From: a virus
Taxonomy: Duplodnaviria; Heunggongvirae; Uroviricota; Caudoviricetes
Length of the DNA stretch: 58,193 nucleotides
Virus record (IMG/VR): IMGVR_UViG_3300045988_132327
Coordinates: 1-58,193 of that record
Strand: one strand, 5' to 3'
Positions 826 through 54,190 of this stretch are shown here, in pieces. Position numbers and translations under genes: made by a program. Every line of letters begins with the position of its first letter. Within the stretch, counting starts at the first letter, position 1. Below the pieces are notes generated by a model. The model had not been told where the DNA came from. It was given only the letters and a program-made list of their open reading frames with translations, and did not search any database.

Positions 826-865
826 TCAAATCATTTACGCACACAAACGCGTTAGAATATTGATT

Positions 866-880
866 TTAGTTTTCTAACAT
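866..880 (-). promoter_or_regulatory. operator-like motif ATGTTAGAAAACTAA (reverse strand)
   Basis: identical 15-mer to 14218..14232 and 24853..24867; between ppp and ORF 922. Confidence 0.5.
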
Positions 881-921
881 ATTATTTTACCGCTCGGAAC
901 AAAACAGAGTCGGTATACATT

Positions 922-1917
922 ATGAGTGCAATAATCACACCTCATTTCGTGAACGGAGCTGGTGTGGCTGTCTTTCCGGTAGACAAGCCCACCAGTAACT
1001 ACATTGGCGCAGGTCGCCGTTTCATTATCTCCCCACTTCCGCGTGAACAGGCTGAAAACACGCCAGATGGCGTAGTGGATCTGAACTATTCGCTGGTTGC
1101 CAACCAGTCTCTGAAACCGTTTTTTCAAAGCGAGCGCGTATTTAACGCGTTGGGCGGTGAAGATTCGCTCGTTCATTGGGTAAGTTCCAATATCCACGAT
1201 TGCCAGGCGCACGATAAGCGCGATTGCAGCCACCAGCTAACCACTCATTTCTATAACGGCTCTGCCGTTCGCCTGTGCTGGAAGCATGATGCGGAATACA
1301 TGATGAAGGGGTACAGCAAGCTGGACGACCAGTTATCCCTGAATCGTGCCAACTGGGTTATGAACTGGGCTGCGAGCGAGTTAAAACTACCGCCAGAACG
1401 CGATCTGAGCATGGTTGAACTCACTTTTTGGGCCATTCGCCGGAATCTGAAAGATGAGCTGCCAGATGAAGCCGGGCGCATTGCATTTTGTCAGCCAAAA
1501 ACTGAAATCCCTACCGGTACGCTGAAAGAATCAGATATCACCTGGGAGCACAGTACCCGCGAGCTGGTGGACATAACCGCAGAGCAGATCGTCAACCTGT
1601 CTGTAGATGAGGATTCCGGCCTGCTTTATATGCGCCGACCAAAAGCGGCCCTCGGTAAAAGCCCAGCTTATCTCAGGTTTGTGGTTTCTCGTCCGTGCAT
1701 CGGATGCGGTGGCAAAGTTAACCACCCGTTCATGTACCGCGCCCGCTCGTTAAACGAACACGACCGCTGGGCTGTTCCTCTTTGCGATGACTGCGCCAGA
1801 AGCGCAGAAAACGATGTCCGGGCATGGGAAAAAGCACATGGCATACGCCTTTACGTAGCCGCCAACCAGCTTTTCGACTTCGCCATCGAGCGCGGAGTGA
1901 TCACGTTCAATAACTGA
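922..1917 (+). CDS. hypothetical phage protein, DUF968-like with C-terminal Cys cluster (CIGCGG...CDDC)
   Basis: 331-aa ORF; family assignment from recalled motif pattern only. Confidence 0.45.
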   Translation: MSAIITPHFVNGAGVAVFPVDKPTSNYIGAGRRFIISPLPREQAENTPDGVVDLNYSLVANQSLKPFFQSERVFNALGGEDSLVHWVSSNIHDCQAHDKRDCSHQLTTHFYNGSAVRLCWKHDAEYMMKGYSKLDDQLSLNRANWVMNWAASELKLPPERDLSMVELTFWAIRRNLKDELPDEAGRIAFCQPKTEIPTGTLKESDITWEHSTRELVDITAEQIVNLSVDEDSGLLYMRRPKAALGKSPAYLRFVVSRPCIGCGGKVNHPFMYRARSLNEHDRWAVPLCDDCARSAENDVRAWEKAHGIRLYVAANQLFDFAIERGVITFNN

Positions 1918-9966: not shown

Positions 9967-10767
9967 TTAGGCGTCAGCATCCTCCGCTACCTCTGCTTCA
10001 ACATCAGCCACGGCTTCATCGGACGGTTCTTCTTTGGCCTGCTCTGCAATCGCCGCACGGCATTTGGCCCTTGCTGTGGCGATTGCTTCAGCACGCACAT
10101 CATCAGGAATCGTTGACGTGATATACATATCCAGTTCTTCGGCGCGGAACACTGTTTGGTCCAGATATTCGCGTAGCATCCAGGTAAATTCGAAATCACA
10201 CGCGATAATCTCTGCGCTACCTTCTGCACCATTTGGGAAATGAATAAAAGCCTGTTTAGCCAAACCGATAACACGACATGCGGTTGCCAAAACAGCGGCA
10301 ACCAGGTTTACATTTTCACACGCTACGGGCTGATTAACGCCGGAGATTACTCCATTTAACTGTCGGTTATATGGAAGGTAGTTTGAGATGCGTTCTACGC
10401 GCCATGTGCCAGTCAGGCTGCCATTCTTAAAGATAATTGGTGTAACGGATAGCCCAAGCTCGCGTATAAGTCGTTGCGCTATAGCAGGATCATTAAACAT
10501 GTCTAATGCTACACATTCGAAAGACTGTGCAAGGGTAAACAGTTCTTCCAGAGAGTAGTCTTTGCCCCTGGCGGTGATGTAACGATGAACGCCGCTTTCT
10601 GCATCACTCCATATAGCTACGCCATGCTCTTCATTCAGCTCTTCATTAAAGCCGAGATACGTCATGATAGTACGTTCAATCGTGTCAAACGGCAGTGACA
10701 TGTCGGCGTTAACAGCCACCAGCAGGCCATTACGCAAGCGGTATTGAATTGCTTTAGTATTTTCCAC
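9967..10767 (-). CDS. hypothetical protein with acidic C-terminal tail
   Basis: 266-aa ORF, last gene of cre-proximal cluster. Confidence 0.45.
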   Translation of the reverse strand: MENTKAIQYRLRNGLLVAVNADMSLPFDTIERTIMTYLGFNEELNEEHGVAIWSDAESGVHRYITARGKDYSLEELFTLAQSFECVALDMFNDPAIAQRLIRELGLSVTPIIFKNGSLTGTWRVERISNYLPYNRQLNGVISGVNQPVACENVNLVAAVLATACRVIGLAKQAFIHFPNGAEGSAEIIACDFEFTWMLREYLDQTVFRAEELDMYITSTIPDDVRAEAIATARAKCRAAIAEQAKEEPSDEAVADVEAEVAEDADA

Positions 10768-11945: not shown

Positions 11946-12418
11946 TGTTTTTTAGCTCTCTGCGTGAAGGTGTAAACCCGACGTTTGATATGTGGAACGG
12001 TAGGAACAGGAATACAGGAACTTTCAATAACTCCTTGCTCCTCCAGCGATCGCACCGCCCGCAAGAACTGCGACGTGTCGCCGCCAAACTGGCGGGCATA
12101 GGTGCTGCCGTTATGAAGTATTTGAGCTATTACCCGAGCTTTTGTCTGGCTGTCACGATATGCGAATAGCCGCACGGCCTCTTCTGGCGCAATCGATAAC
12201 TGATAGCCTTTACCGGCACGGTGTCGAATGAATCCATGCGCCAGTAGGTTTTTGAGTTCGTTACGAGTGCGAACAGATCCGTAATCCAGGAAGTGTGGAT
12301 TGATAACGACTGGCTTAAACCATTCCGTAGGTGCTTTAGCTAATAGAGCTAACAGCTTCCCGGACAATCCTGGATAGGAAGACGGGTAACAATTCAGAGA
12401 TGGGTAATAAGTTTTCAC
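11942..12418 (-). CDS. hypothetical protein
   Basis: 158-aa ORF, start overlaps upstream gene by 4 nt. Confidence 0.4.
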   Translation of the reverse strand: MKTYYPSLNCYPSSYPGLSGKLLALLAKAPTEWFKPVVINPHFLDYGSVRTRNELKNLLAHGFIRHRAGKGYQLSIAPEEAVRLFAYRDSQTKARVIAQILHNGSTYARQFGGDTSQFLRAVRSLEEQGVIESSCIPVPTVPHIKRRVYTFTQRAKKQ

Positions 12419-12771
12419 CGACGCCCCCTTGCCGGATATCGACCTGCATTAGTATCCGGTGCAATAAAGCCGGTAGTGGGGCGAGTGAAAGCGAGATTAA
12501 TCTTCTCGACCATAGTGCGATAATTTTCCTGATAGTGGGCCAGGAGTTTTTCGGCGGCAATGATGGTTACTTTCCGGACGTAGCTTTCTGCTTCCTCCAG
12601 ATTTCGCCAGTTTTTTTCGAGGGTAAACACAGGGACGGCCTCAAGCCCGGTCATGATGCCGAATACAACGACAGCATGACTGTTCTTAACACCAGCGGCG
12701 AAGGTTACGGTGTAACCATCCACCGTGAAGCGTCTTGATTCCGTGATTTGACTCTGCAAAGCACCCTCCAA
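12415..12771 (-). CDS. hypothetical protein
   Basis: 118-aa ORF, first gene downstream of cre. Confidence 0.4.
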   Translation of the reverse strand: MEGALQSQITESRRFTVDGYTVTFAAGVKNSHAVVVFGIMTGLEAVPVFTLEKNWRNLEEAESYVRKVTIIAAEKLLAHYQENYRTMVEKINLAFTRPTTGFIAPDTNAGRYPARGRR

Positions 12772-12816
12772 AATAGGCGAGGGTACTTTACAGCAAAGAT
12801 ATCAATCTAAAAAGAT

Positions 12817-12831
12817 GTGTTAGAAATTTAA
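12817..12831 (+). promoter_or_regulatory. operator-like motif GTGTTAGAAATTTAA
   Basis: member of dispersed 15-bp motif family; between cre stop and 12415..12771. Confidence 0.45.
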
Positions 12832-12832
12832 T

Positions 12833-13861
12833 TTACGAATCCATCAAGCGGCTATTAGCCCCCACAGACACACCGCCACGGCGCAGATACCGCATAAGTG
12901 TTTCCGGTTTCTTCCAGGTTCCTTCCTGCATGATCTCCACCATAGACACCTGCTTTTCAGCCATATCGATAGCGGCCCCGACACGAGCACTATGCCCGGT
13001 CCACGTCCGGTATCTCCCTTTGTTTGGCGCGGCATCCCTTTTATTCAGCAACACCCAGGCGTCGCTGAATATTTTCTCCATTGCAGGTGCAGTAAGGGGA
13101 GTTGTCGTAATCCTGGCTTTATTGCTACGGTGTATCGGCGGGAACAGCACCGCGTCAGGATGTTCACGAAGCCCGGAAACATCCAGCCAGTCATTCAGCA
13201 CTGCGGTAGTGCGACGGGAAAGCACCTTATCAAGCCCGGCGGCGGTCGTTATTGTCTTCGTGTGTGAAATATGTAGCGTGACAGTGTCACCTGTTTGGTC
13301 CAGATCTCCTACACGAATACGCGAGATTTCCGACATACGCATCAGCGTATTGTATGCAACAAAGAGAAAAGCCCGGTTGCGCAGGTCCACCAGCCGTTCT
13401 GACTTGGACAACAGGACGTCGAGCAGTTTCAGATCGTCCCACCGCAGCGGTATAGCCTGGCCTGTTCGTTCGCCTTTTTCAGTTGCCGCTTCGCGCCGGA
13501 TGCGCCGCATAGCCAGAGAAACACTTTTATCATCCGAAAGTGGCGGAAGGCCACAATGCGAAAGCAGCATGTTCAGCATGGCGTAGTGCTTATCAATGGT
13601 GGTCGAAGCCAGATCGGCATCATGCAGCTGAAGAAAATACTCGCGGGCCATTTCTGGTGAGATCGGAAACCAGGCAAGCTGGCGAGCGTGACACCAGCGC
13701 GCCCAGGAATGAAACACCAACCGGAGGTCGCGCAGAGTATTCGGCGCATAAGCCCCCTGGTCATTCATGAACCGCATAAAGTTTTCTGCGGCTTCCTGGT
13801 ACTCTTTGCCAATGTTGCGCAGAAAACCACCGGAACTGCCAGAGATAATTAATTCACTCAT
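12833..13861 (-). CDS. cre: Cre-like tyrosine site-specific recombinase
   Basis: 342 aa; multiple blocks matching P1 Cre as recalled (VSLAMRRIRRE, RNRAFLFVAYNTLMRMSEISRIRVGDL, WTGHSARVGAA, catalytic Tyr in MRYL). Confidence 0.9.
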   Translation of the reverse strand: MSELIISGSSGGFLRNIGKEYQEAAENFMRFMNDQGAYAPNTLRDLRLVFHSWARWCHARQLAWFPISPEMAREYFLQLHDADLASTTIDKHYAMLNMLLSHCGLPPLSDDKSVSLAMRRIRREAATEKGERTGQAIPLRWDDLKLLDVLLSKSERLVDLRNRAFLFVAYNTLMRMSEISRIRVGDLDQTGDTVTLHISHTKTITTAAGLDKVLSRRTTAVLNDWLDVSGLREHPDAVLFPPIHRSNKARITTTPLTAPAMEKIFSDAWVLLNKRDAAPNKGRYRTWTGHSARVGAAIDMAEKQVSMVEIMQEGTWKKPETLMRYLRRGGVSVGANSRLMDS

Positions 13862-14012
13862 GAAACTATTTCACCTCTATATACAGATGACGCTACGCGA
13901 AAAATATAAAAATGACAGGGTAGCTATAAGTTAATTTTCAAAATACAAGCCTTTGATTCGAGGCACGTATTTTCAGTGATGTCAACACTGTTCATCTACA
14001 CATGATTATAGC

Positions 14013-14046
14013 CTAACTTTAAATAATGCCAATTATCTAAAGTTAG
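14013..14046. other. lox-like recombination site CTAACTTTAAATA-ATGCCAAT-TATCTAAAGTTAG (13-8-13)
   Basis: 13-bp inverted arms (12/13 complementary) around an asymmetric 8-bp spacer, same geometry as loxP; about 150 bp upstream of cre. Confidence 0.55.
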
Positions 14047-14053
14047 AAATTTA
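14039..14053 (+). promoter_or_regulatory. operator-like motif AAGTTAGAAATTTAG (weaker copy)
   Basis: overlaps right arm of lox-like site. Confidence 0.35.
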
Positions 14054-14217
14054 GGAATTTTTTTCCTTTCCGCGCAGATGGGCAATGCATTGCTGGTGTG
14101 GGCTTTAAGTTATGCCTGGCAGTTTTTAAGCAGAATTTTCTAAATTGGATGATAAAAAAATGCATCTTGATCCTTTACTCACCCTGTTATTCGGCATAGA
14201 TTTGTCATAGTAATTTT

Positions 14218-14232
14218 ATGTTAGAAAACTAA
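14218..14232 (+). promoter_or_regulatory. operator-like motif ATGTTAGAAAACTAA
   Basis: identical 15-mer also at 866..880 and 24853..24867 (reverse strand); 15 nt upstream of ORF 14247. Confidence 0.5.
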
Positions 14233-14246
14233 ATCGAGTAGGAATA

Positions 14247-15284
14247 ATGAGTAAGAAGTCGATCGAGAAAGAGTACAAACGGTTCCTGCAAACCGCTGAA
14301 CGGTGGAAAGAGCTGGTGGTCGCAAACTCTGTTTTCCATGATACCAGTTATTCCGGCGAGGAATTCCGCCATGTTGCACTAACACATGATCAGAATGTGC
14401 TAGAAGAAGCTGAAAAGTGCCTCACAGAATGGAAAGCCTTTGTTGACTTGTGCCGTAACGCTGACGGCAAAGCGTCTAACATTGTTGAGTCTGTATATTC
14501 TCCGATCCCATTCATTATCGAGGACACAAATCAAAGCACGCATATTGTTGTGCAAAGCGCGACCACCACCCGCTCATTTACGCGCGAAAATCTGCTCAAA
14601 AAATATGATGCAATTATAAAGAAAAGCCTGAAAAACAAGATATTTTCGCAGATTGTTGGTGCACTTGAAGAAGAGCGCCGTTTTTTCGCATCAGAACCTG
14701 AAGGGGAAGTTTACCGGGCGCGCAAAGATGGATACACAGATGTAGTGCTTACAACAAACATTGAAGGCAGCAATGCTCTGTCACGATTCAGGGTAGGCGC
14801 ACACGGAGCCTTAGTGTTCGCAAAACTTCCGAACACCACAGTGCCCGTTGTTAATAATGTCGGCGAACGTCGCAGCATTACTATTTATTCTGGGGTTGAG
14901 TCGATACCTTGCGGCCTGCTTGGTGACTTTAGTCTCTATCGCGTTCGCGATCTGGAGAAACACCAACCAAGCTATGTTGCGAAGTCATACATCTTGCGAA
15001 ACATCGACATCCGCAATGAGAGCTTAAAGAACAAATCAGCCAAAATGCTTGAGGAAGCCGATCCGGCTATTCGCCATATCATTGAGCGTAAAATACAGAC
15101 AGCACGCGAAGCGATGGCGAGACTGAATAAAATGGATCTGGAGTTGTTAGACGTAATGATGACATCCGGAGATGACCTGACAGGCATAAAACTGACAGAC
15201 GCGCGGAAAAGATACGGTAAAACCATAGAAGAACGTTACGGGTTCACTTTCTCCCAAACACAGCACGCCGCTAAACTCTGGTAA
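14247..15284 (+). CDS. hypothetical protein; positional candidate for C1-like immunity repressor
   Basis: 345 aa; convergent with pacB and divergent from cre across an operator-rich spacer; no recognisable domain. Confidence 0.45.
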   Translation: MSKKSIEKEYKRFLQTAERWKELVVANSVFHDTSYSGEEFRHVALTHDQNVLEEAEKCLTEWKAFVDLCRNADGKASNIVESVYSPIPFIIEDTNQSTHIVVQSATTTRSFTRENLLKKYDAIIKKSLKNKIFSQIVGALEEERRFFASEPEGEVYRARKDGYTDVVLTTNIEGSNALSRFRVGAHGALVFAKLPNTTVPVVNNVGERRSITIYSGVESIPCGLLGDFSLYRVRDLEKHQPSYVAKSYILRNIDIRNESLKNKSAKMLEEADPAIRHIIERKIQTAREAMARLNKMDLELLDVMMTSGDDLTGIKLTDARKRYGKTIEERYGFTFSQTQHAAKLW

Positions 15285-15288
15285 TCAC

Positions 15289-15313
15289 AAGCCCCGCATT
15301 GCCGGGGCTTTAT
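15289..15313 (+). terminator. hairpin terminator
   Basis: gccccg-cattgc-cggggc then TTTAT, just after 14247..15284. Confidence 0.4.
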
Positions 15314-15355
15314 CCGGTGCGCCGTAAAACCCCGTCCTTCAGGGCGTGGAGGATG

Positions 15356-16864
15356 TCAAATATCCAGATCTGGCATTTCTACATCTGCAAGAACCTGATC
15401 GCGGAAGGTAGCCATTTCAGCGCCGATATCTTCATTAGCAGGAACATAGTCCACCAGCATTGTAAAGCAGTAGGTATCCCATCGGTCAGGTGATTTGATG
15501 TTCAGCTTTTGCCGCATGTGCTCCTTGCGCATCATCGCCATCTTCCCTTCTTCATTAAGTAAAAAGGGGATTTTTGACGCTTGCTCTGCCGTTTTAGGGT
15601 CGCTGTCTATTCGCATACGACCTGACTTTATGGCATCGCGAGCCATAATATTTGCGTAGGCACGCTGGTTAACAAAACGCTCCTTGTCTTTGTTCGAAAA
15701 CATGGGTTTCCCCCACCGAATCCGTACCGGATTAGCCCCACGGCGCACCAGCTGCGCACAGGTATCTGAACCAAAACCGTCTGCGTCAACCGCGATTGTA
15801 ATATTCGGGTATTTATCCGGCGTGCATTCGTTGTATATAAAGTCAGCAAAAGCCAGCGGGTCCATAGTCCCTGGCATTTCCATTACCTTAAAGTTAACAA
15901 CACGCCGCTTTTCCCGGTGACCAGACACTTTACAGATATTAAGAACTGACTTGTCTCGCCCGTTACCAACGTCAGCAGTAGCCACCCATCCCCAGTTTTT
16001 CTCCAACAACACCTTGCGCCGCGCAGCGCGATCGCATTCATCACGACCAAGCAAATAGCCGTTAATCTCCCGAGGAAACTGACCAAGAACCTTGACCATG
16101 TACTCAATAGAATCGCGCCCGCCATATTCCAGGAGTTTCTGCCTGATGAATTGTGGTGTGACGAACGGTGATTCTTCTGAGTTAAGAACAATTGCTGTCC
16201 AGATCCCTTTCGGGTTGTCTGGGGTTTTAGCTTGAGAATGGTGCGAATCGTAGAAATAACCACTTGGCCTTGTTGGCTGGGATAGCATCAACATTCGGTT
16301 ATCTTCTTCAGTCAGAGCGCCAGTCATTACGCCGATCGCTTTATCAGATATACCTGATGCTTCATCCAGAATTAGAAGCAAATGTGCCGCGTGCTCCCCC
16401 GCCAGTGCTTCTTCGTTACCGAGTCGATAACCTTTGCAGAGAACTTCCCAGATCCCTTTGCGGGAACGTTCATAAAACATGGTGTCAGACAGGACAAAAT
16501 AGGTCTGTAACCACCCGTGACGCTTAACTGCATTCGCCCAATACTGTTTAACGTATTTGAATACGCCTGTTTTAACCTGGCCTATCTTGTTAGCAACAAT
16601 GATGACACGGGCATCGGGGAACAGAATCAAATAAATCAGCAACAACATAGCCGTTAACGACGATTTCCCTGTACCGTGACCAGAAGTAACAGTGGTTCTG
16701 CTCCCTTTTTGCTGTACGGACTGGATAATCTCCTGCTGCTGGTGGGAGGGAAACATCCCGAAAATATCAACAACAGCCTGGGTAAAGTTGTAGCGGTATT
16801 TGATTACCATATCGCGCCAGCGTGGATCGCTGGTGACGCATTTAATCTTGCGCCCACCAGCCAT
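15356..16864 (-). CDS. pacB: terminase large subunit, PacB-like
   Basis: 502 aa; Walker A GHGTGKSS; start overlaps pacA stop. Confidence 0.8.
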   Translation of the reverse strand: MAGGRKIKCVTSDPRWRDMVIKYRYNFTQAVVDIFGMFPSHQQQEIIQSVQQKGSRTTVTSGHGTGKSSLTAMLLLIYLILFPDARVIIVANKIGQVKTGVFKYVKQYWANAVKRHGWLQTYFVLSDTMFYERSRKGIWEVLCKGYRLGNEEALAGEHAAHLLLILDEASGISDKAIGVMTGALTEEDNRMLMLSQPTRPSGYFYDSHHSQAKTPDNPKGIWTAIVLNSEESPFVTPQFIRQKLLEYGGRDSIEYMVKVLGQFPREINGYLLGRDECDRAARRKVLLEKNWGWVATADVGNGRDKSVLNICKVSGHREKRRVVNFKVMEMPGTMDPLAFADFIYNECTPDKYPNITIAVDADGFGSDTCAQLVRRGANPVRIRWGKPMFSNKDKERFVNQRAYANIMARDAIKSGRMRIDSDPKTAEQASKIPFLLNEEGKMAMMRKEHMRQKLNIKSPDRWDTYCFTMLVDYVPANEDIGAEMATFRDQVLADVEMPDLDI

Positions 16865-18228
16865 TAGTCGTCCTCCGGCGGTTCTATCGCGATATCATCA
16901 TCTCCGGCGTCATATCCTGCGTCTGATGCATCATAATCACCGTAAATTTCAGCCGTAGCCGAAGGGTCAATATCCAACTCTTCGTCGTTGGCCTCGAATT
17001 CCCCAGCCTTACGCTCGCCATTGTGGTCGTAATCTCCGCACCCCAGATCTTCAACAATGGTTGCCACATCCGCCCGGCGCTCTGCCAGCCATTGCGGATG
17101 GTTAGCCTGAAGCGATGCAAACTCCTTCGCTTCTTTGTCCAGCTGTTCATCATCAACATCATTGATGTCAGAAACTGGAGGCTCGAGAAGAGTGATAGCT
17201 TTCGCCGCGCGCGCCGCGAGGATAGCCGGGACACTGACACCCTGACGCTCGATGTATTCAGCAACACCGATATCATCCAGCTCCTCGCGCTCACGCATAC
17301 GTATAGCGGCGGCGATAACTCTGGCTGCGCGTGCGTCAGCGCCAATGCGATATTCAATCTCTTTGCCACGCTGTTCGGCCTGTAGGCGTGCTAATTCGAG
17401 TTTTTCTCTGGCCTCGGCCTCTCTGAATGCTTGCTGGCGAGCACCCTGACGAAGTTTTTCATCACCCTGTCGCAGCTTTTGTTCGGACTGATATATCGCT
17501 GCCAACCTACTGATAAAATCGTTCATGTAGTAGGCCGCGTCACTGATTAGACCGAGCAGTCGCTGCCCAGGGTGCATTCCTTCTGGCTGCTGATCACCCA
17601 GGGCGTCTATCTCCGCCTGTAGGCGTTCGGCCTCCTGATCAACAATGCTTTGGTACTGAAGTGCGCGTTCTTGCGCCATTTGAATTGCTAACCGCAGGTG
17701 CTCTTCTGCGCCGTTCTTCATCATGTCGCGAGCCACACTCGTAGTGGGCAACGTGGCACGCTGCACAGCACCGCCAGGGATCATTGCTGAAGATCCCTCG
17801 GTTTTTGAAGCGCATTTATCTTCGGCGGGGATCATTTTCGCCATTTTTTCGCGCAATGATCTCCTGACAGATTCTTTTATCTCATTGTTATTATTGGTGT
17901 TATTGTCATGATCCGAAGTTTTCTTTCTTGGCATACTTCGGAAAGAACCTGCACCCTGCGAATTGTCAATTTCTGTAAATTTTGTTTTTTCTGCACCCTC
18001 TTCCAGCTTTTTTGTTGCTCTTCCCGCCCGTTTTTTTTCAGGTGATTTGGTGCTTTTTTTTGTTGTCTTTACCTGCGACCGCACCTCATTTTTTTTCATA
18101 TTGAGATGCTTTCTGGCTGTATTGAAGCTAAGGCCATGCTCCTCACAGTATTCCTTTACAGTGATCCCTTTTTCTTCACGCAACGCTATAAAGCGGGCGC
18201 GGTGCTCCTCCCAATTAACCAGACTCAT
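16864..18228 (-). CDS. pacA: terminase small subunit, PacA-like
   Basis: 454 aa; N-terminal HTH-like region; directly upstream of and overlapping pacB. Confidence 0.7.
   Translation of the reverse strand: MSLVNWEEHRARFIALREEKGITVKEYCEEHGLSFNTARKHLNMKKNEVRSQVKTTKKSTKSPEKKRAGRATKKLEEGAEKTKFTEIDNSQGAGSFRSMPRKKTSDHDNNTNNNNEIKESVRRSLREKMAKMIPAEDKCASKTEGSSAMIPGGAVQRATLPTTSVARDMMKNGAEEHLRLAIQMAQERALQYQSIVDQEAERLQAEIDALGDQQPEGMHPGQRLLGLISDAAYYMNDFISRLAAIYQSEQKLRQGDEKLRQGARQQAFREAEAREKLELARLQAEQRGKEIEYRIGADARAARVIAAAIRMREREELDDIGVAEYIERQGVSVPAILAARAAKAITLLEPPVSDINDVDDEQLDKEAKEFASLQANHPQWLAERRADVATIVEDLGCGDYDHNGERKAGEFEANDEELDIDPSATAEIYGDYDASDAGYDAGDDDIAIEPPEDD
17779..17913. other. candidate pac site (GATC cluster within pacA)
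   Basis: five GATC in 135 bp, four in TGATC context; P1 pac lies within pacA and is made of TGATCA/G hexamers (recalled). Confidence 0.4.
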
Positions 18229-18617
18229 AAAGCAACACCACGCTTTTTAACGGCGGCATTCCACAGCTTATTCGCCATGTCCACCAGCTCTCGTTGCTCT
18301 TTTCGCGCCTGTTCGACTGATTTCCTGCTACAGTTTTTAACCAGTAAGCTACCGTATTCAGGCGTGCGCCCGCGCACCTTGAACTGATATCCGTTCAGGC
18401 CATGCAACCAGTATTTCCGTGGGTAAACACGATCATCAAGCTCACAAATAGCTCGGCTTGACCGCACAAAATGCCGAATGATGTTGGTTACACTTACGCG
18501 TGAAACATGAAGGTGAGGATATTTTTCTTTAGCTAGAGTGGTGATTTCGGTGACTGTCAGATAGCAGTCAGCCCTAATCATGATATCCGCAATTTCTGCG
18601 CTGCTGATATGCTCCAT
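18225..18617 (-). CDS. lpa: putative late-promoter activator, Lpa-like
   Basis: 130 aa, immediately upstream of pacA as in P1; assignment positional. Confidence 0.4.
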   Translation of the reverse strand: MEHISSAEIADIMIRADCYLTVTEITTLAKEKYPHLHVSRVSVTNIIRHFVRSSRAICELDDRVYPRKYWLHGLNGYQFKVRGRTPEYGSLLVKNCSRKSVEQARKEQRELVDMANKLWNAAVKKRGVAL

Positions 18618-18694
18618 TAATCCCCCAGGCAGGAAATGACCGAGGGGATGATAATGAGAATGTTATTTCTGTATAGACTGGCAAAAAGTTGGTT

Positions 18695-18709
18695 ATATTA
18701 GAAAATTAA
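18695..18709 (+). promoter_or_regulatory. operator-like motif ATATTAGAAAATTAA (weaker copy)
   Basis: intergenic, upstream region of lpa-like gene. Confidence 0.3.
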
Positions 18710-18725
18710 TTCCATTCATCTAACA

Positions 18726-35228: not shown

Positions 35229-35650
35229 CAGTGTGCCTCCGCAATTCCGGGATTGGTAATATTGCGATACCAAGGATTAGTGTTTGGTTGTGATGAAGTA
35301 GAGAAACGGCCAGTCAGGACGCCATGTTGATCAGGGATCAGAGAACGGGCTTCTTTTTCAGTTGCGGCAATTGCGAAGTGATCGCAGTGTTTTTGCAGGG
35401 AGTGGAAACGCCAGATAAATTCCGGGCGCGAGCAAGGATTGGCATTAACCATAGTTACGGCCTCATTCGTAGGTTTAACAACCTGCGCCCCGCTGCTAAA
35501 CGGGTGGCAGGACGTGACGGGGTTAGCAGACTGGCACGAATGAAACCAGCAGGCCGAAGCCTCCCCATCACGCCCCACCATAATTCGGGCGTAACGTGGT
35601 TTTACGGACACAAAAATACCGCAATATCGGATATCTGCGGTTGTCCGCAT
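35228..35650 (-). CDS. hypothetical Cys-rich protein
   Basis: 140-aa ORF translationally coupled to Rha-like gene. Confidence 0.4.
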   Translation of the reverse strand: MRTTADIRYCGIFVSVKPRYARIMVGRDGEASACWFHSCQSANPVTSCHPFSSGAQVVKPTNEAVTMVNANPCSRPEFIWRFHSLQKHCDHFAIAATEKEARSLIPDQHGVLTGRFSTSSQPNTNPWYRNITNPGIAEAH

Positions 35651-35798
35651 TCGTATTCAGGCTGCTAAACCCGGTCGCAGAATTTGCTACGACGACATGA
35701 ATATAAGCCTGAAAACATGGAAGATCAACTAAAAATTTCAGCAATGGATGACTTCAGTCGATGATGCAGATCATACATTCCGATTTAGAAACAGCAAA

Positions 35799-35813
35799 TT
35801 AATTTTCTAACAC
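35799..35813 (-). promoter_or_regulatory. operator-like motif GTGTTAGAAAATTAA (reverse strand)
   Basis: about 150 nt upstream of 35228..35650 start. Confidence 0.45.
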
Positions 35814-35866
35814 AAATTATTGAGCGAGCATTTTCCGATCATTGGGATGTTTTGTAGACGCACAGG

Positions 35867-36829
35867 TCATCCCCTAAAGCCAGCCGGGATTGACCAATCC
35901 TCACGGTCAAATTCAGACCGATAGCCACGCTGTTTCATCAGGTCAAAGGCTTCACCAATGGTTGCACACCCCTGGGAGCCAGAATAATCCATTGAGAAAT
36001 CCAGGACACTGGATTGTTTAGGCTTATTCACTGCGGTAGCTGCACTACGTATCCATGCAAATTTTTTTGCCAGCTTTTCAGCGGTACGATACAGAGCCTG
36101 CCGTTTTGCGTGCCCCTCGTCTGAACGACGCTTTGCAGCTCTCGCTTTTGCCGCCGCCAGGCAGTGGTTGGTATGTTCTTCCCTGATTACTGGTTTTTTA
36201 TCCAGTAATCCATTATCCGCTTGGGAACTATCTGCTGGTGAAGCCTTTGGCTGAACCGCGCATGATCTTTCTCTTCTTTTGTCTATAGAGTGACTCTTAT
36301 TTTCTATTGGCTGTTCATTTTGAACATGGGGGGACTTGTTCAATTTGAACAGGGGGTTCCCAGTTTCAAAAAAATACCGAACCTTTGAAATCAACTGCTT
36401 AACCAGTTTTGTGGCGTTCGCAAATTTGATGCCCTGCTTACCCCCTATCTCCATTGCTACATGAATGAAGTGGAGAAATTGTGTTGTAAACCGGTATACG
36501 TTACACACCTGAGCATTGTTATTCGCTACCTGATGTTGCTTAACAAGCATTCCGCACTTCGTCGCTTCAGCAAATGCCCGGCGCACAGTAGAAATACTGC
36601 GTCCTGTAATCTCGGACATATCAGCATATGAGCGACGGATCATGTATTCATCGGTAGCTCCTGCCAGGTTGGCGAACTCGGCAATAATGGCGCTATGTGA
36701 AGGGGAAAGAAAACCGCTATGACGAGCAAAAAAACTCAACTGATGACCTTTGATTTTTTTGTGGTATTCAGTGTTGTTTTTATACTCAGAAGTGTTGAAA
36801 GTTACTGAAATTGAATTTAAAATATTCAC
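35867..36829 (-). CDS. putative RepL-like replication/regulatory protein
   Basis: 320 aa; winged-helix-like segment; internal tandem palindromes resemble an origin; assignment tentative. Confidence 0.4.
   Translation of the reverse strand: MNILNSISVTFNTSEYKNNTEYHKKIKGHQLSFFARHSGFLSPSHSAIIAEFANLAGATDEYMIRRSYADMSEITGRSISTVRRAFAEATKCGMLVKQHQVANNNAQVCNVYRFTTQFLHFIHVAMEIGGKQGIKFANATKLVKQLISKVRYFFETGNPLFKLNKSPHVQNEQPIENKSHSIDKRRERSCAVQPKASPADSSQADNGLLDKKPVIREEHTNHCLAAAKARAAKRRSDEGHAKRQALYRTAEKLAKKFAWIRSAATAVNKPKQSSVLDFSMDYSGSQGCATIGEAFDLMKQRGYRSEFDREDWSIPAGFRG
36311..36355. repeat. two tandem 15-bp palindromes TGTTCAnTTTGAACA each followed by G5, inside the RepL-like ORF
   Basis: 36311..36325 and 36336..36350, 25-bp periodicity. 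Confidence 0.6.
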
Positions 36830-36925: not shown

Positions 36926-37001
36926 GCAATCGCTACCGGAGCAGTGACCGCGATCCTACTCGATCACATCGGACAGGATCAACAGTGTATATAAATACAC
37001 T

Positions 37002-37016
37002 ATGTTAGAAATTTAA
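37002..37016 (+). promoter_or_regulatory. operator-like motif ATGTTAGAAATTTAA
   Basis: intergenic between pro-like and RepL-like genes. Confidence 0.45.
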
Positions 37017-37029
37017 CTTCATTCAGCGG

Positions 37030-51472: not shown

Positions 51473-54190
51473 TTACACCTGCGCCACGTTATACCATGTG
51501 CCATTAATGTATTTTTGTATTGGTCTGAATACTGCCGGATCATCGCCATCAACTTCGCCGACAATGCCAAGCCCTGTAATTACATGACCTGATTTCTCAT
51601 ACATCACGCCTCTTTGCATGGTCTGAACAACACGAGTGCCCAGGCGAATATCTCGTACATAGCGAGAATCCGATTCAGCTTTGGTATATGCACCAACATC
51701 TCCCGCAGAGGGTTTGCGGGTTGTGGTATAAAACTCTGACCAGTCAGCCTCAAATCCATAACCATCTCGCGCTGAACGATAATAAATACCGCCGTTCTTA
51801 TAATTCACACGGAACTGAACCGCCGGGCAACTCCCCGCATTCATATTAAAGTGAAGAATCAATGTTGACGCTCCACTAATAGTCGCATTATAAACGCCGC
51901 TATTTGAGTTCCATCCAACAGCTTTGTCATTTCCAACAGTGCTTCCTGTTTGCCCTAAAGCAAATGCAGGTTGTTGATTTTTCGTGTTGTAGTCTCGTCG
52001 CCAGCCAGGGGCGTAATCTGCGCCATGGTTTATATAAGTAAATTGTGCATTAGTAGTTCCGCCACCGTTGGAAGTGCTCGGGGTGGTTACACGGATGGTC
52101 ATGGCACCTTTATGACCCATAACCTCAATAACGCAACCTGCAAGATGAATAGTTCCACAGCCAGTATCGGTAATAATTTTATTATTGCCGTATGACCATG
52201 AACATTTGCACATCCAGTATGGGTGATTGAATGCCCCTTGAGAATCCAGCCATTCAATCAATTGTGCCGTTGTCCAGTTCCCTGCACCTGTACTAATAGA
52301 ACTGTGAAAAGCGCGACATGCACCAATATTTTTTGTGAAGGTATCTTTTCCTGGAATATCTGCGCCGTTCTGGTTTTTCTGTAATGCTCCTGCGGCTAAT
52401 TCTACGGTTTGCTCAAGATTTAAATCTTCCGCCGTTAGCTCAATATTTTTAGAACCATCAAACGAGACGCCGTTGATAGTACATGCTGTCTGCAACTTGG
52501 TCGCTGTCGCTGCATTACCGGTAGTGTTCTGATTACCTGTTTTATTCACACCTGGCAGGTCGATATTGGCACTACCATCGAATGACACACCGCCTATTGT
52601 GCGTGCTGTTTTCAATTTCGTCGCGGTGTCGGCGTTCCCTGTCAGTGCCCCGGTGATCCCGCCGTTAAAAGTCTGGCGCGCACTCCATGTGTTAGCCGTG
52701 CTCAACAGGGGGATCTTTTCACCGCTGGTACCGAGTTCTCTTAAACCAAGGTATTGGATAACGGCAAGGACACTTGTTTTAGCCAGAATATCGCGACCGA
52801 CTGACGTTAAATCAGTCTGGGCAACAGTATCTTTACCGGTAAAGTACGGCAATTTATTTGCGCCAGTTGCAAGCCCCGCAAGTGCGGTTAAAGTTGCGTC
52901 AAGGGGCTGTTTTCCCGCGAGCGCATTTGTCATTGTTGTCGCAAAATTCGGGTCATTACCGAGCGCCTCAGCCAGTTCATTCAGCGTATCCAGAGCTTCA
53001 GGCGAAGAATCTACTAATGCAGATATAGCCGCTCTTACATAAGCGGTCGTGGCAATCTGCGTATTGTTCGTACCCTGTCCCGCAGTCGGCGCAGTAGGAA
53101 CTCCCGTTAATGCAGGGCTTGCCAAAGGTGCTTTAAGAGCAAGGGCATTGTTGATAGTTGTGCTGAAATTCGGGTCGTTATTGATCGCAGCCGCTATTTC
53201 TTTCAGAGTATCCAGTGTTCCCGGAGCGCCATTGATAAGTGCAGATATAGCCGCTCTTACATAAGCGGTCGTGGCAATCTGCGTATTGTTCGTACCCTGT
53301 CCCGCAGTCGGCGCAGTAGGAACTCCCGTTAATGCAGGGCTTGCCAAAGGTGCTTTAAGAGCAAGGGCATTGTTGATAGTTGTGCTGAAATTCGGGTCGT
53401 TATTGATCGCAGCCGCTATTTCTTTCAGAGTATCCAGTGTTCCCGGAGCGCCATTGATAAGTGCAGATATAGCTGCCTTAACAAAGGCTGCATTTGCGAT
53501 CTGCGTGCTGTTTGTGCCTTGCTCTGCCGTCGGCGCGGTTGGTATACCTTTCAGATGAGGGCTATCGATCGGGGCTTTTGTGTCAACCAAATCATGGAGG
53601 GTTTTGACAGCCAAAGGTGTAGCCGCTTTTCTCTCTTCTGTACTGCTTATTTCATTAGAGAACTCAACACCCACAGCACGATTGACACGGTATTTAAGCA
53701 CTATCATTTCTTTAGTCACAGCCGTTGCCCCGCTGGGGACCACAACTCGACATAATTCAATTTGATTCTGCCCAATAGTGTTGTCCGTGCGCGCGTATAT
53801 TCTGGCGGCACTGACAGAAGATGTGCTATCTACCTGTATCGTTTTTACACCATGTTCAAAATTAGCTTCAAGCACAATAATGTTGGTAGCCCCGGCCTTT
53901 ACCGAAACAATCACATCTTCTATTTGCTGAACGGATATCTGAACATTATTTACATCTACTGAAGCAGCCCCCTTACCTTCTGAGTTTTCAGAAGTGATAC
54001 GGACACTCAATCCTGTGCCGGGAACTGGTTCAAATCCGCAGTAAAAACCAGGCAAAACAATATTTTTTAACTTCCTGTTAAGAGCCGAGCTACTATACAG
54101 GTCGAAATATTGAACATCAGCAAGCAGTGGCTGTGTGACACCTGAAGATAGTGTCATTATGCTTTTCGTTTTATCAGCACCCATGATCAT
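51473..54190 (-). CDS. tail fibre protein S (constant part fused to currently selected variable part)
   Basis: 905 aa; three approximately 74-aa tandem repeats; cix site embedded at 52736..52761. Confidence 0.8.
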   Translation of the reverse strand: MIMGADKTKSIMTLSSGVTQPLLADVQYFDLYSSSALNRKLKNIVLPGFYCGFEPVPGTGLSVRITSENSEGKGAASVDVNNVQISVQQIEDVIVSVKAGATNIIVLEANFEHGVKTIQVDSTSSVSAARIYARTDNTIGQNQIELCRVVVPSGATAVTKEMIVLKYRVNRAVGVEFSNEISSTEERKAATPLAVKTLHDLVDTKAPIDSPHLKGIPTAPTAEQGTNSTQIANAAFVKAAISALINGAPGTLDTLKEIAAAINNDPNFSTTINNALALKAPLASPALTGVPTAPTAGQGTNNTQIATTAYVRAAISALINGAPGTLDTLKEIAAAINNDPNFSTTINNALALKAPLASPALTGVPTAPTAGQGTNNTQIATTAYVRAAISALVDSSPEALDTLNELAEALGNDPNFATTMTNALAGKQPLDATLTALAGLATGANKLPYFTGKDTVAQTDLTSVGRDILAKTSVLAVIQYLGLRELGTSGEKIPLLSTANTWSARQTFNGGITGALTGNADTATKLKTARTIGGVSFDGSANIDLPGVNKTGNQNTTGNAATATKLQTACTINGVSFDGSKNIELTAEDLNLEQTVELAAGALQKNQNGADIPGKDTFTKNIGACRAFHSSISTGAGNWTTAQLIEWLDSQGAFNHPYWMCKCSWSYGNNKIITDTGCGTIHLAGCVIEVMGHKGAMTIRVTTPSTSNGGGTTNAQFTYINHGADYAPGWRRDYNTKNQQPAFALGQTGSTVGNDKAVGWNSNSGVYNATISGASTLILHFNMNAGSCPAVQFRVNYKNGGIYYRSARDGYGFEADWSEFYTTTRKPSAGDVGAYTKAESDSRYVRDIRLGTRVVQTMQRGVMYEKSGHVITGLGIVGEVDGDDPAVFRPIQKYINGTWYNVAQV
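52736..52761. other. cix-like crossover site (right), inverted relative to 48279..48304
   Basis: reverse complement ttatccaataccttggtttaagagaa shares 16 nt with left site. Confidence 0.6.
53018..53461. repeat. perfect 222-bp tandem duplication inside tail-fibre constant region (third, diverged copy follows)
   Basis: copy 1 53018..53239, copy 2 53240..53461, identical by eye; in-frame 74-aa repeat. Confidence 0.8.

Follow-up and report, generated by a model that had tools for sequence, protein, structure and literature searches.

Organization of the c1 locus

The DNA considered here, in the following denoted as the window, comprises all 58,193 nucleotides of the IMG/VR virus record IMGVR_UViG_3300045988_132327. 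Megablast and gene comparison identify this 58-kb window as a D6-like phage-plasmid. It harbors c1, an open reading frame (ORF) of 345 amino acids (aa) that most probably encodes C1, the master prophage repressor of the element. The protein is a remote homolog (~20% identity) of the C1 proteins of phages P1 and P7 and a 90%-identical allele of D6 C1. In a first-pass annotation made from the sequence alone, the ORF had been proposed as a candidate immunity repressor of unknown fold, with boundaries, strand, and ATG start that proved exact. This region shares 90.8% identity with immC of phage D6 (AY753669) and with the full D6 genome (MF356679). D6-like phage-plasmids occur commonly in E. coli, Shigella, and Salmonella (PMC6799933), and many plasmids of ~90 kb from these bacteria match the window at 94-97%.

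The c1 gene is divergent from a cre-like gene and convergent with pacB, a layout that the first-pass annotation had already recognized and that was borne out (Table 1). The cre-like gene encodes the tyrosine recombinase Dre, and pacB is followed by pacA and lpa. A Shine-Dalgarno sequence, AGGA, is located at 14240-14243, 3 nt before the c1 ATG. The spacer between dre and c1 (385 bp, 13862-14246) holds rox, the lox-like target site of Dre. A lox-like site had indeed been noted there, whereas the 'several operator-like motifs' also ascribed to the spacer reduce to one strong and two weak copies.

Table 1. Genes, protein regions, and putative regulatory sites discussed in the text (positions refer to the window)
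Feature	Position	Strand	Evidence or remark
Site upstream of pdcB-like gene (922..1917)	863..882	-	motif copy conserved in D6 at 80722
Site between dre stop and next leftward ORF (12415..12771)	12815..12834	+	motif copy
Tyrosine recombinase Dre, 342 aa	12833..13861	-	Pfam Phage_integrase; 340/342 identical to D6 Dre
rox site (Dre target, lox-like)	14014..14045	.	D6 annotation and alignment
Site proximal to c1, TTATGTTAGAAAACTAAATC, ends 11 bp before ATG; putative autoregulation	14216..14235	+	identical in D6
c1, D6 type, 345 aa; predicted master prophage (immunity) repressor	14247..15284	+	ORF, ATG start
Core of C1 (residues ~7-241) with homology to P1/P7 C1; alpha+beta, Tus-like fold predicted	14265..14969	+	alignment, model
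D6-type-specific C-terminal extension, residues ~233-345	14943..15281	+	alignment; secondary structure
GC-rich hairpin followed by UUUAU, between convergent c1 and pacB; plausible (bidirectional) terminator	15289..15313	+	weak
PacB	15356..16864	-	neighbor, convergent with c1
PacA	16864..18228	-	adjoins pacB
lpa	18225..18617	-	after pacA
Site upstream of lpa, analogous to P1 Olpa	18693..18712	+	motif copy
Site in ORF-poor region between pmgS-like gene and tRNA cluster	23445..23464	-	motif copy
Site abutting 3' end of pmgS-like gene, upstream of tRNA cluster region	23601..23620	-	motif copy
Site directly upstream of pmgS-like gene (23620..24843)	24850..24869	-	motif copy
Site at 5' end of pmgM-like gene (25453..25947)	25893..25912	-	motif copy; weaker one at 25947-25966
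Site upstream of c4 antisense RNA/icd/antirepressor unit (immI-like)	35796..35815	-	motif copy
Site upstream of repL-like lytic replication gene (35867..36829, -)	37000..37019	+	motif copy; D6 repL annotation

Relationship of C1 to the repressors of D6, P1, and P7

The C1 protein of phage D6 (AAV84948.1 in AY753669; ASR76322.1, D6_1, in MF356679) is 90% identical to window C1 in an ungapped alignment with 36 substitutions, and the D6 gene shares its length (345 aa), its slot between rox/dre and pacB, its ribosome-binding site (RBS), and its start. GenBank labels both D6 genes as c1 or 'phage repressor / prophage repressor, similar to P1 gene C1'. The gene is thus already known, being an allele of D6 c1, which has been annotated since 2004; as far as established, this annotation is similarity-based, with no functional test behind it. 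A 2019 study of D6-like Salmonella plasmids names the gene a homolog of the 'C1 master lytic repressor' (PMC6799933). The nearest protein cluster (96% identity) carries PF27008 and the NCBI name 'phage repressor protein', which is routinely given to relatives, so that the gene call as such changes nothing. The protein matches PHROG 1678 with an E-value (E) of 7e-159, a family labelled 'unknown function'. A local copy of Pfam, which is without the PF27008 model, returned no helix-turn-helix (HTH) and no other family for the 345-aa protein, in agreement with the initial remark that no HTH is obvious.

Similarity to P1-type C1 is too faint to stand out in a routine search, tblastn of the protein against all phages giving E 0.05-10. 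BLASTP against the 283-aa C1 of RCS47 gave 20% identity over 241 collinear residues (E 2e-8). RCS47 C1 shares 99% identity with cluster P0013, the protein used for the model of P1-type C1. Searching with P1 C1 (tblastn), the sole match in the window and in D6 is the c1 gene (E ~1e-5). The comparison of profiles, named beforehand in the first-pass annotation as a way to check its proposal, yielded a remote relationship: hhalign aligned the D6-type with the P1-type profile with 97.7% probability (E 2e-12, 230 columns, residues 7-241). The NCBIfam model NF041318, 'phage_rep_C1', matches residues 7-240 (23.3 bits, E 3.8e-5), and PF27008 (Phage_P7_repressor_C1) is carried as a precomputed tag by all close homologs (45-96% identity) as well as by P1-type C1s. 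Taken with the D6 annotation and the synteny in distant relatives described below, these matches uphold the view, one of two options considered originally, that the protein is a diverged C1.

Thirteen residues are invariant in both subfamilies (E7, F13, G37, R41, P86, P88, I90, R157, R159, V183, G187, Y214, and C222), and the predicted order of secondary-structure elements is the same in window C1 and P1 C1. The window core, residues 7-241, is matched by residues 8-246 of P1/P7 C1. These proteins consist of 283 aa, the length given in the first-pass annotation, whereas the D6 type has ~100 extra C-terminal residues. Both types occupy the immC slot on the lox/cre side of pacB, adjacent to this gene and convergent with it, and both lack an HTH. 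A profile search among 1.84 billion representative proteins retrieved only 131 clusters, most of them 250-290 aa long and ~12 with a long C-terminus. One D6-type cluster, P0004 (403 aa, 107 members), shows unrelated sequence after ~residue 320 and looks like a frameshifted or fused c1 variant.

A dispersed operator-like motif

Unbiased counting of k-mers over the whole window yielded one enriched family, around TGTTAGAAA, and no other repeat of comparable enrichment. This 9-mer occurs in 9 copies against 0.58 expected, a number reached in 0/100 shuffles. The 15-mer TATGTTAGAAAACTA, presumably the '15-bp motif' mentioned in the first-pass annotation, is found 12 times with up to 3 mismatches (1.38 expected), three of these copies being exact. 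Alignment leads to the asymmetric consensus T-R-T-G-T-T-A-G-A-A-A-(A/T)-Y-T-A-A-t-T, i.e. T-R-TGTTAGAAAA-Y-TAA-tT. About ten copies in the window are strong, and the copies are intergenic or located at gene ends, except for one 3-mismatch copy within darB. The TGTTAGAAAA motif is regarded as the putative operator of D6-type C1.

The sites were mapped with a position weight matrix (PWM) and compared with the complete D6 genome (Table 1), which contains conserved copies and further ones beyond the range of the window, including copies between ref and orf88 and upstream of hrdC/dmt. One site of the window precedes a unit in which Rfam models detect a C4 antisense RNA (35500-35585, 71.9 bits) and a c4-a1b1 target element (35654-35706, 52.2 bits) on the minus strand; with C4 and a1/b1 upstream of the icd/antirepressor genes, the stretch 35500-35706 is organized as a P1 immI-like module. 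Two other copies lie 156 bp apart at 23445-23620, in a stretch of ~560 bp (23060-23619) without any ORF of at least 80 aa. This stretch is bordered by the pmgS-like gene and by an 85-aa ORF (22802..23059), the latter preceding the tRNA cluster. The two copies may mark a C1-controlled promoter for this ORF and/or the tRNAs.

Three metagenomic relatives (L007, L008, and L009), the C1 proteins of which are 45-53% identical to that of the window, keep the order recombinase gene, c1, pacB-pacA-lpa. TGTTAGAAAA is the top-enriched k-mer in L007 and L008 and belongs to the enriched 10-mers in L009. It is present upstream of c1 in 3/3 loci, after the recombinase gene in L007 (8400) and L008 (8417), where these copies are the counterparts of the post-dre site at 12815..12834, and upstream of the lpa homologs in L008 (14472) and L009 (14484). 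This recurrence in diverged loci is the strongest independent support for an operator function of the motif. In L007 and L008, a divergent pair of copies, 88 bp apart, precedes c1; L009 and D6 harbor a weaker leftward copy ~87-100 bp upstream of the proximal site, and the same copy has degenerated in the window. The TGTTAGAAAA core is absent from 53 kb of P1, from the RCS47 locus, and from one E. coli chromosomal segment, and TGTTAGAAA is likewise lacking in the P1 sequence. In L007, the called c1 start (10001) is an ATG within the operator copy 9999-10018 (TTATGTTAGAAAA...) and adds 29 N-terminal residues (MLEKSI...) that occur in no other homolog; judging from this comparison, the start was probably mis-called.

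Predicted fold of C1 and its resemblance to Tus

The AlphaFold2 model of window C1, built from an alignment of 17 sequences, reached a mean predicted local distance difference test (pLDDT) value of 86.6 and a predicted template modelling (pTM) score of 0.57, the latter being expected for two modules. The modelled core is of the alpha+beta type and encompasses a helix (3-26), two strands, a second helix (49-71), strands at 89-112, a third helix (113-148), and a long hairpin (155-192). Tus was the best and only significant match in a structure search of the PDB, both for the model of window C1 and for that of P1 C1. Tus, the protein of E. coli that binds replication terminus sites (PF05472; PDB 1ECR, 4XR0-2), is composed of two alpha+beta lobes joined by interdomain beta-strands. 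On the basis of these models, a Tus-like fold of the C1 core is probable, which refines the initial description as 'unknown fold', and the length in excess of P1 C1 is accounted for by a predicted helical extension specific to the D6 type.

At the sequence level, no relation to Tus became apparent. With a single Tus sequence, hhalign gave 1.3%, and a 72-sequence C1 profile against a Tus profile gave 7.7% (P 0.0045), the Tus profile being shallow, as the Tus homolog search delivered only sequences at least 81% identical; both hhalign runs align the same regions. Cross-family hmmsearch between C1 and Tus returned a best E of 0.014 (160-sequence set), window C1 does not match PF05472, and the two families have separate Pfam accessions. 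Literature searches retrieved nothing relevant on a C1-Tus link or on the motif. Common ancestry of C1 and Tus is possible, and the resemblance between the models is at present a lead at the level of the fold, without sequence support.

A further, suggestive parallel concerns the DNA sites. Both Tus and P1 C1 are reported to bind DNA as monomers. Tus recognizes the asymmetric 23-bp Ter and represses its own gene via TerB (PMC8707476). TerB of MG1655 (AATAAGTATGTTGTAACTAAAGT) ends 10 bp before the tus ATG and has the same orientation as the c1-proximal site TTATGTTAGAAAACTAAATC, the end of which is 11 bp away from the c1 ATG. With a 2-nt gap permitted, TTATGTTAGAAAACTAAATC and TerB have TATGTT..AACTAAA in common, the conserved Ter core being ATGTTGTAACTA with the locking C6. 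Among shuffled operators, 4.3% attain the score of this alignment, as do 1% of AT-rich 20-mers, and Ter-likeness is lower in the remaining motif copies. The similarity of Ter and operator was therefore rejected as evidence of a link to Tus, since it is within chance (p ~0.01-0.04), and is kept as a lead only.

That P1/D6 C1 and Tus diverged within a single ancient fold family, that of HTH-less clamps binding asymmetric DNA sites via beta-strands, is a tentative idea, held at somewhat less than even chances. If true, it would explain the missing DNA-binding motif in C1 and the non-palindromic operators; the autoregulating Tus could have been domesticated from a phage-plasmid repressor, or the reverse; and the D6-type operator (TATGTT-AG-AA-AACTAA) could be a relic relative of Ter (TATGTT-GT-AACTAA). 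Should the fold reflect homology, a possible origin for the taxonomically restricted Tus would be at hand. The predicted fold itself would account structurally for an oddity of 35 years' standing, namely a master repressor that acts on asymmetric sites without an HTH.

The C-terminal extension is strongly conserved in the D6 type and absent from P1-type C1 in the alignment, where it covers residues ~243-345. It is modelled as two long helices (233-270 and 276-306) and a small end of three short helices (316-342). Its interpretation as fused Lxc or Coi was rejected, with hhalign probabilities of 0.3% and 0.2%, respectively. Most plausibly, the extension would add a function that P1 keeps out of C1, namely self-association or looping between operator pairs, or else the docking of antirepressors of the Roi/KilA type. 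Such a role fits the lack of a detectable Lxc or Coi homolog.

Proposed mechanism of repression and alternative explanations

It is proposed that C1 binds the motif copies sequence-specifically, as P1 C1 does its dispersed asymmetric 17-bp operators. DNA would be recognized by a Tus-like, two-lobed alpha+beta clamp without HTH, in which the conserved beta-strand arginines R41, R157, and R159 contact the DNA. Via the site that ends 11 bp before the ATG, next to the RBS, C1 would repress its own gene, and it would shut off lpa, repL, the c4/icd/antirepressor unit, and several other (early) operons. Repression would keep the plasmid prophage quiescent and confer immunity of the D6 type. The predicted repressor role is supported by the presence of the dispersed operator-like motif at regulatory positions equivalent to those in P1.

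Several observations weigh against this interpretation. The 23.3 bits obtained with NF041318 are far below the equivalog cutoff of that model (500 bits), so functional equivalence to P1 C1 may not be assumed from sequence; judged by these matches, window C1 is distantly homologous to P1 C1 but no equivalog of it. For the C-terminal extension, Pfam, NCBIfam, and the PDB gave no match, and no function can be assigned to it. PWM statistics are circular for the window, and independent support for the motif comes only from the unbiased k-mer counts with their shuffles and from the distant loci. Hexamers resembling promoter elements are weak around the copies and vary in their placement. With respect to the genes downstream, the motif is found in either orientation, which holds for P1 operators, too, but lends no positive support. 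The spacer before c1 contains one strong copy only (14216-14235, PWM score 28.6), accompanied by two weak ones at 14038-14057 (6.7), which overlaps an arm of rox, and at 14202-14221 (5.5).

The single strong copy before c1 would also suit a different assignment, in which C1 is the repressor but binds another sequence, and TGTTAGAAAA belongs to early promoters or is recognized by some other D6-type factor. Its AT-rich composition resembles that of promoter DNA, and several copies overlap weak -35/-10-like hexamers. This assignment is nevertheless unlikely. The genes at which the motif is found correspond one by one to the P1 C1 regulon (c1, lpa, repL, c4/icd/ant, and, in D6, ref), and its asymmetry and length (~17-20 bp) are those of P1 operators. 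It accompanies D6-type c1 even in diverged elements, whereas the P1 sequence (53 kb) lacks it. Moreover, k-mer counting offers no second repeat of comparable enrichment.

Less probable still, at a level that we consider slight, is a C1-derived, Tus-like protein with its main role outside immunity, either as a barrier to forks or transcription or in plasmid replication or copy control. The resemblance of the fold to Tus, the fact that Tus likewise has a binding site immediately before its own gene, and the location of some copies at gene 3' ends rather than at obvious promoters (12815 and 23601) speak for such a role. On the other hand, the gene holds the position of c1 within a P1-like immunity region, the sites precede classic lytic regulators, no other candidate master repressor is seen at the c1 locus, sequence similarity to Tus is lacking, and the Ter/operator likeness is not significant. 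Insertion of an unrelated gene where pacB and lox adjoin, the second option of the first-pass annotation, might be suspected from the missing match in the local Pfam copy, the uninformative PHROG label, and the mere 20% identity to P1 C1, but the homology to C1 refutes it and leaves it a negligible chance, given the collinear hhalign alignment (97.7%), the shared PF27008, the NCBIfam C1 match, the 13 invariant residues, and the common order of secondary-structure elements.

With C1 as the master repressor acting on TGTTAGAAAA sites, the consensus and the site map make the D6-type immunity regulon directly testable. Neither the operator consensus and map nor the prediction of a Tus-like fold was found in the accessible literature, which was without the primary D6 papers; both are in-silico inferences, and no priority is claimed.

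Sequence features flanking c1

Compared with the published D6 rox, the site in the window carries a single substitution (T to C in the right arm, at 14037). A promoter scan placed a near-consensus sigma-70-like promoter within rox (TTGGCA-16-TATAAT, 11/12), directed at dre. Up to and through rox, the spacer is near-identical to that of D6, whereas ~120 bp on the c1 side (~14050-14170) are poorly alignable and include a 9-bp indel relative to D6. With 340/342 identical residues in Dre but only 90% identity in C1, this looks like a mosaic boundary at rox, as if D6-like plasmids had exchanged sequence at this recombination site or close to it.

Between the convergent c1 and pacB, the hairpin listed in Table 1 folds with -14.1 kcal/mol and a z-score of only -1.15, and a terminator scan did not report it. 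The c1-pacB gap measures 71 bp in the window versus 27 bp in D6. A segment of 52 bp (15310-15361), comprising part of this gap as well as the stop codon of pacB, has a counterpart with 98% identity in >100 Shiga toxin (Stx)-converting phages, where it sits inside genes for a 'hypothetical protein'; D6 is without this stretch.

Comparison with phage D6 and the P1 switch

The tRNA cluster of the window (20147-22380, compared with L005 6084-7850) encodes Met(cat), Ser(tga), Thr(tgt), and Arg(tct), all on the minus strand, and D6 has Asn(gtt) in place of Arg(tct). The D6 GenBank entry gives the tRNAs on the plus strand and omits tRNA-Met, whereas ARAGORN finds all four on the minus strand. In a 905-aa tail-fibre-like gene (ORF 51473..54190, minus strand), the 12-mer GCTATATCTGCA recurs at 53018, 53240, and 53462, i.e. 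with an exact spacing of 222 bp, reminiscent of the annotated 222-bp repeats b1/b2 of the P1 S gene. An 86-aa ORF (26084-26344, minus strand) lies directly downstream of a ulx-like gene, where P1 has lxc, the gene of the C1 corepressor. It does not align with Lxc and was rejected as a diverged Lxc; it could be an analogous modulator or unrelated.

P1 possesses 22 dispersed asymmetric 17-bp operators with the consensus ATTGCTCTAATAAATTT, and RepL, Lpa, and the coi-c1 operon itself are under the control of its C1 (PMC8546580). In the GenBank record of P1, Oref, Omat, Ossb, Olpa, and Oc1a-e are given as C1 binding sites. The arrangement in the D6-like element resembles this regulon in its dispersed asymmetric sites before c1, lpa, repL, the c4/icd/ant unit, and, in D6, ref. 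The operators themselves are dissimilar: the P1 and window consensus sequences align weakly, and a search of the 58-kb window for ATTGCTCTAATAAATTT, tolerating up to 3 mismatches, gave 0 matches. Since the operator differs from that of P1 and the P1 operator is absent, immunity should be distinct from P1 immunity.

The regions upstream of c1 also differ. P1 has the Oc1a-e array before c1, and coi, imcB, imcA, and four further operators between c1 and lox (GenBank record), whereas the window has one strong site and a distance of ~200 bp from rox to c1. No ORF of at least 50 aa lies wholly inside the dre-c1 spacer on the c1 strand. Searches with Coi, Lxc, ImcA, and ImcB (tblastn) gave no match, either in the window or across the entire genome of D6, and Lxc was likewise not detected in D6-like plasmids (PMC6799933). 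Together with the conserved C-terminal extension of C1, the missing Coi and Lxc point to a lysis-lysogeny switch that is wired differently from the P1 model.

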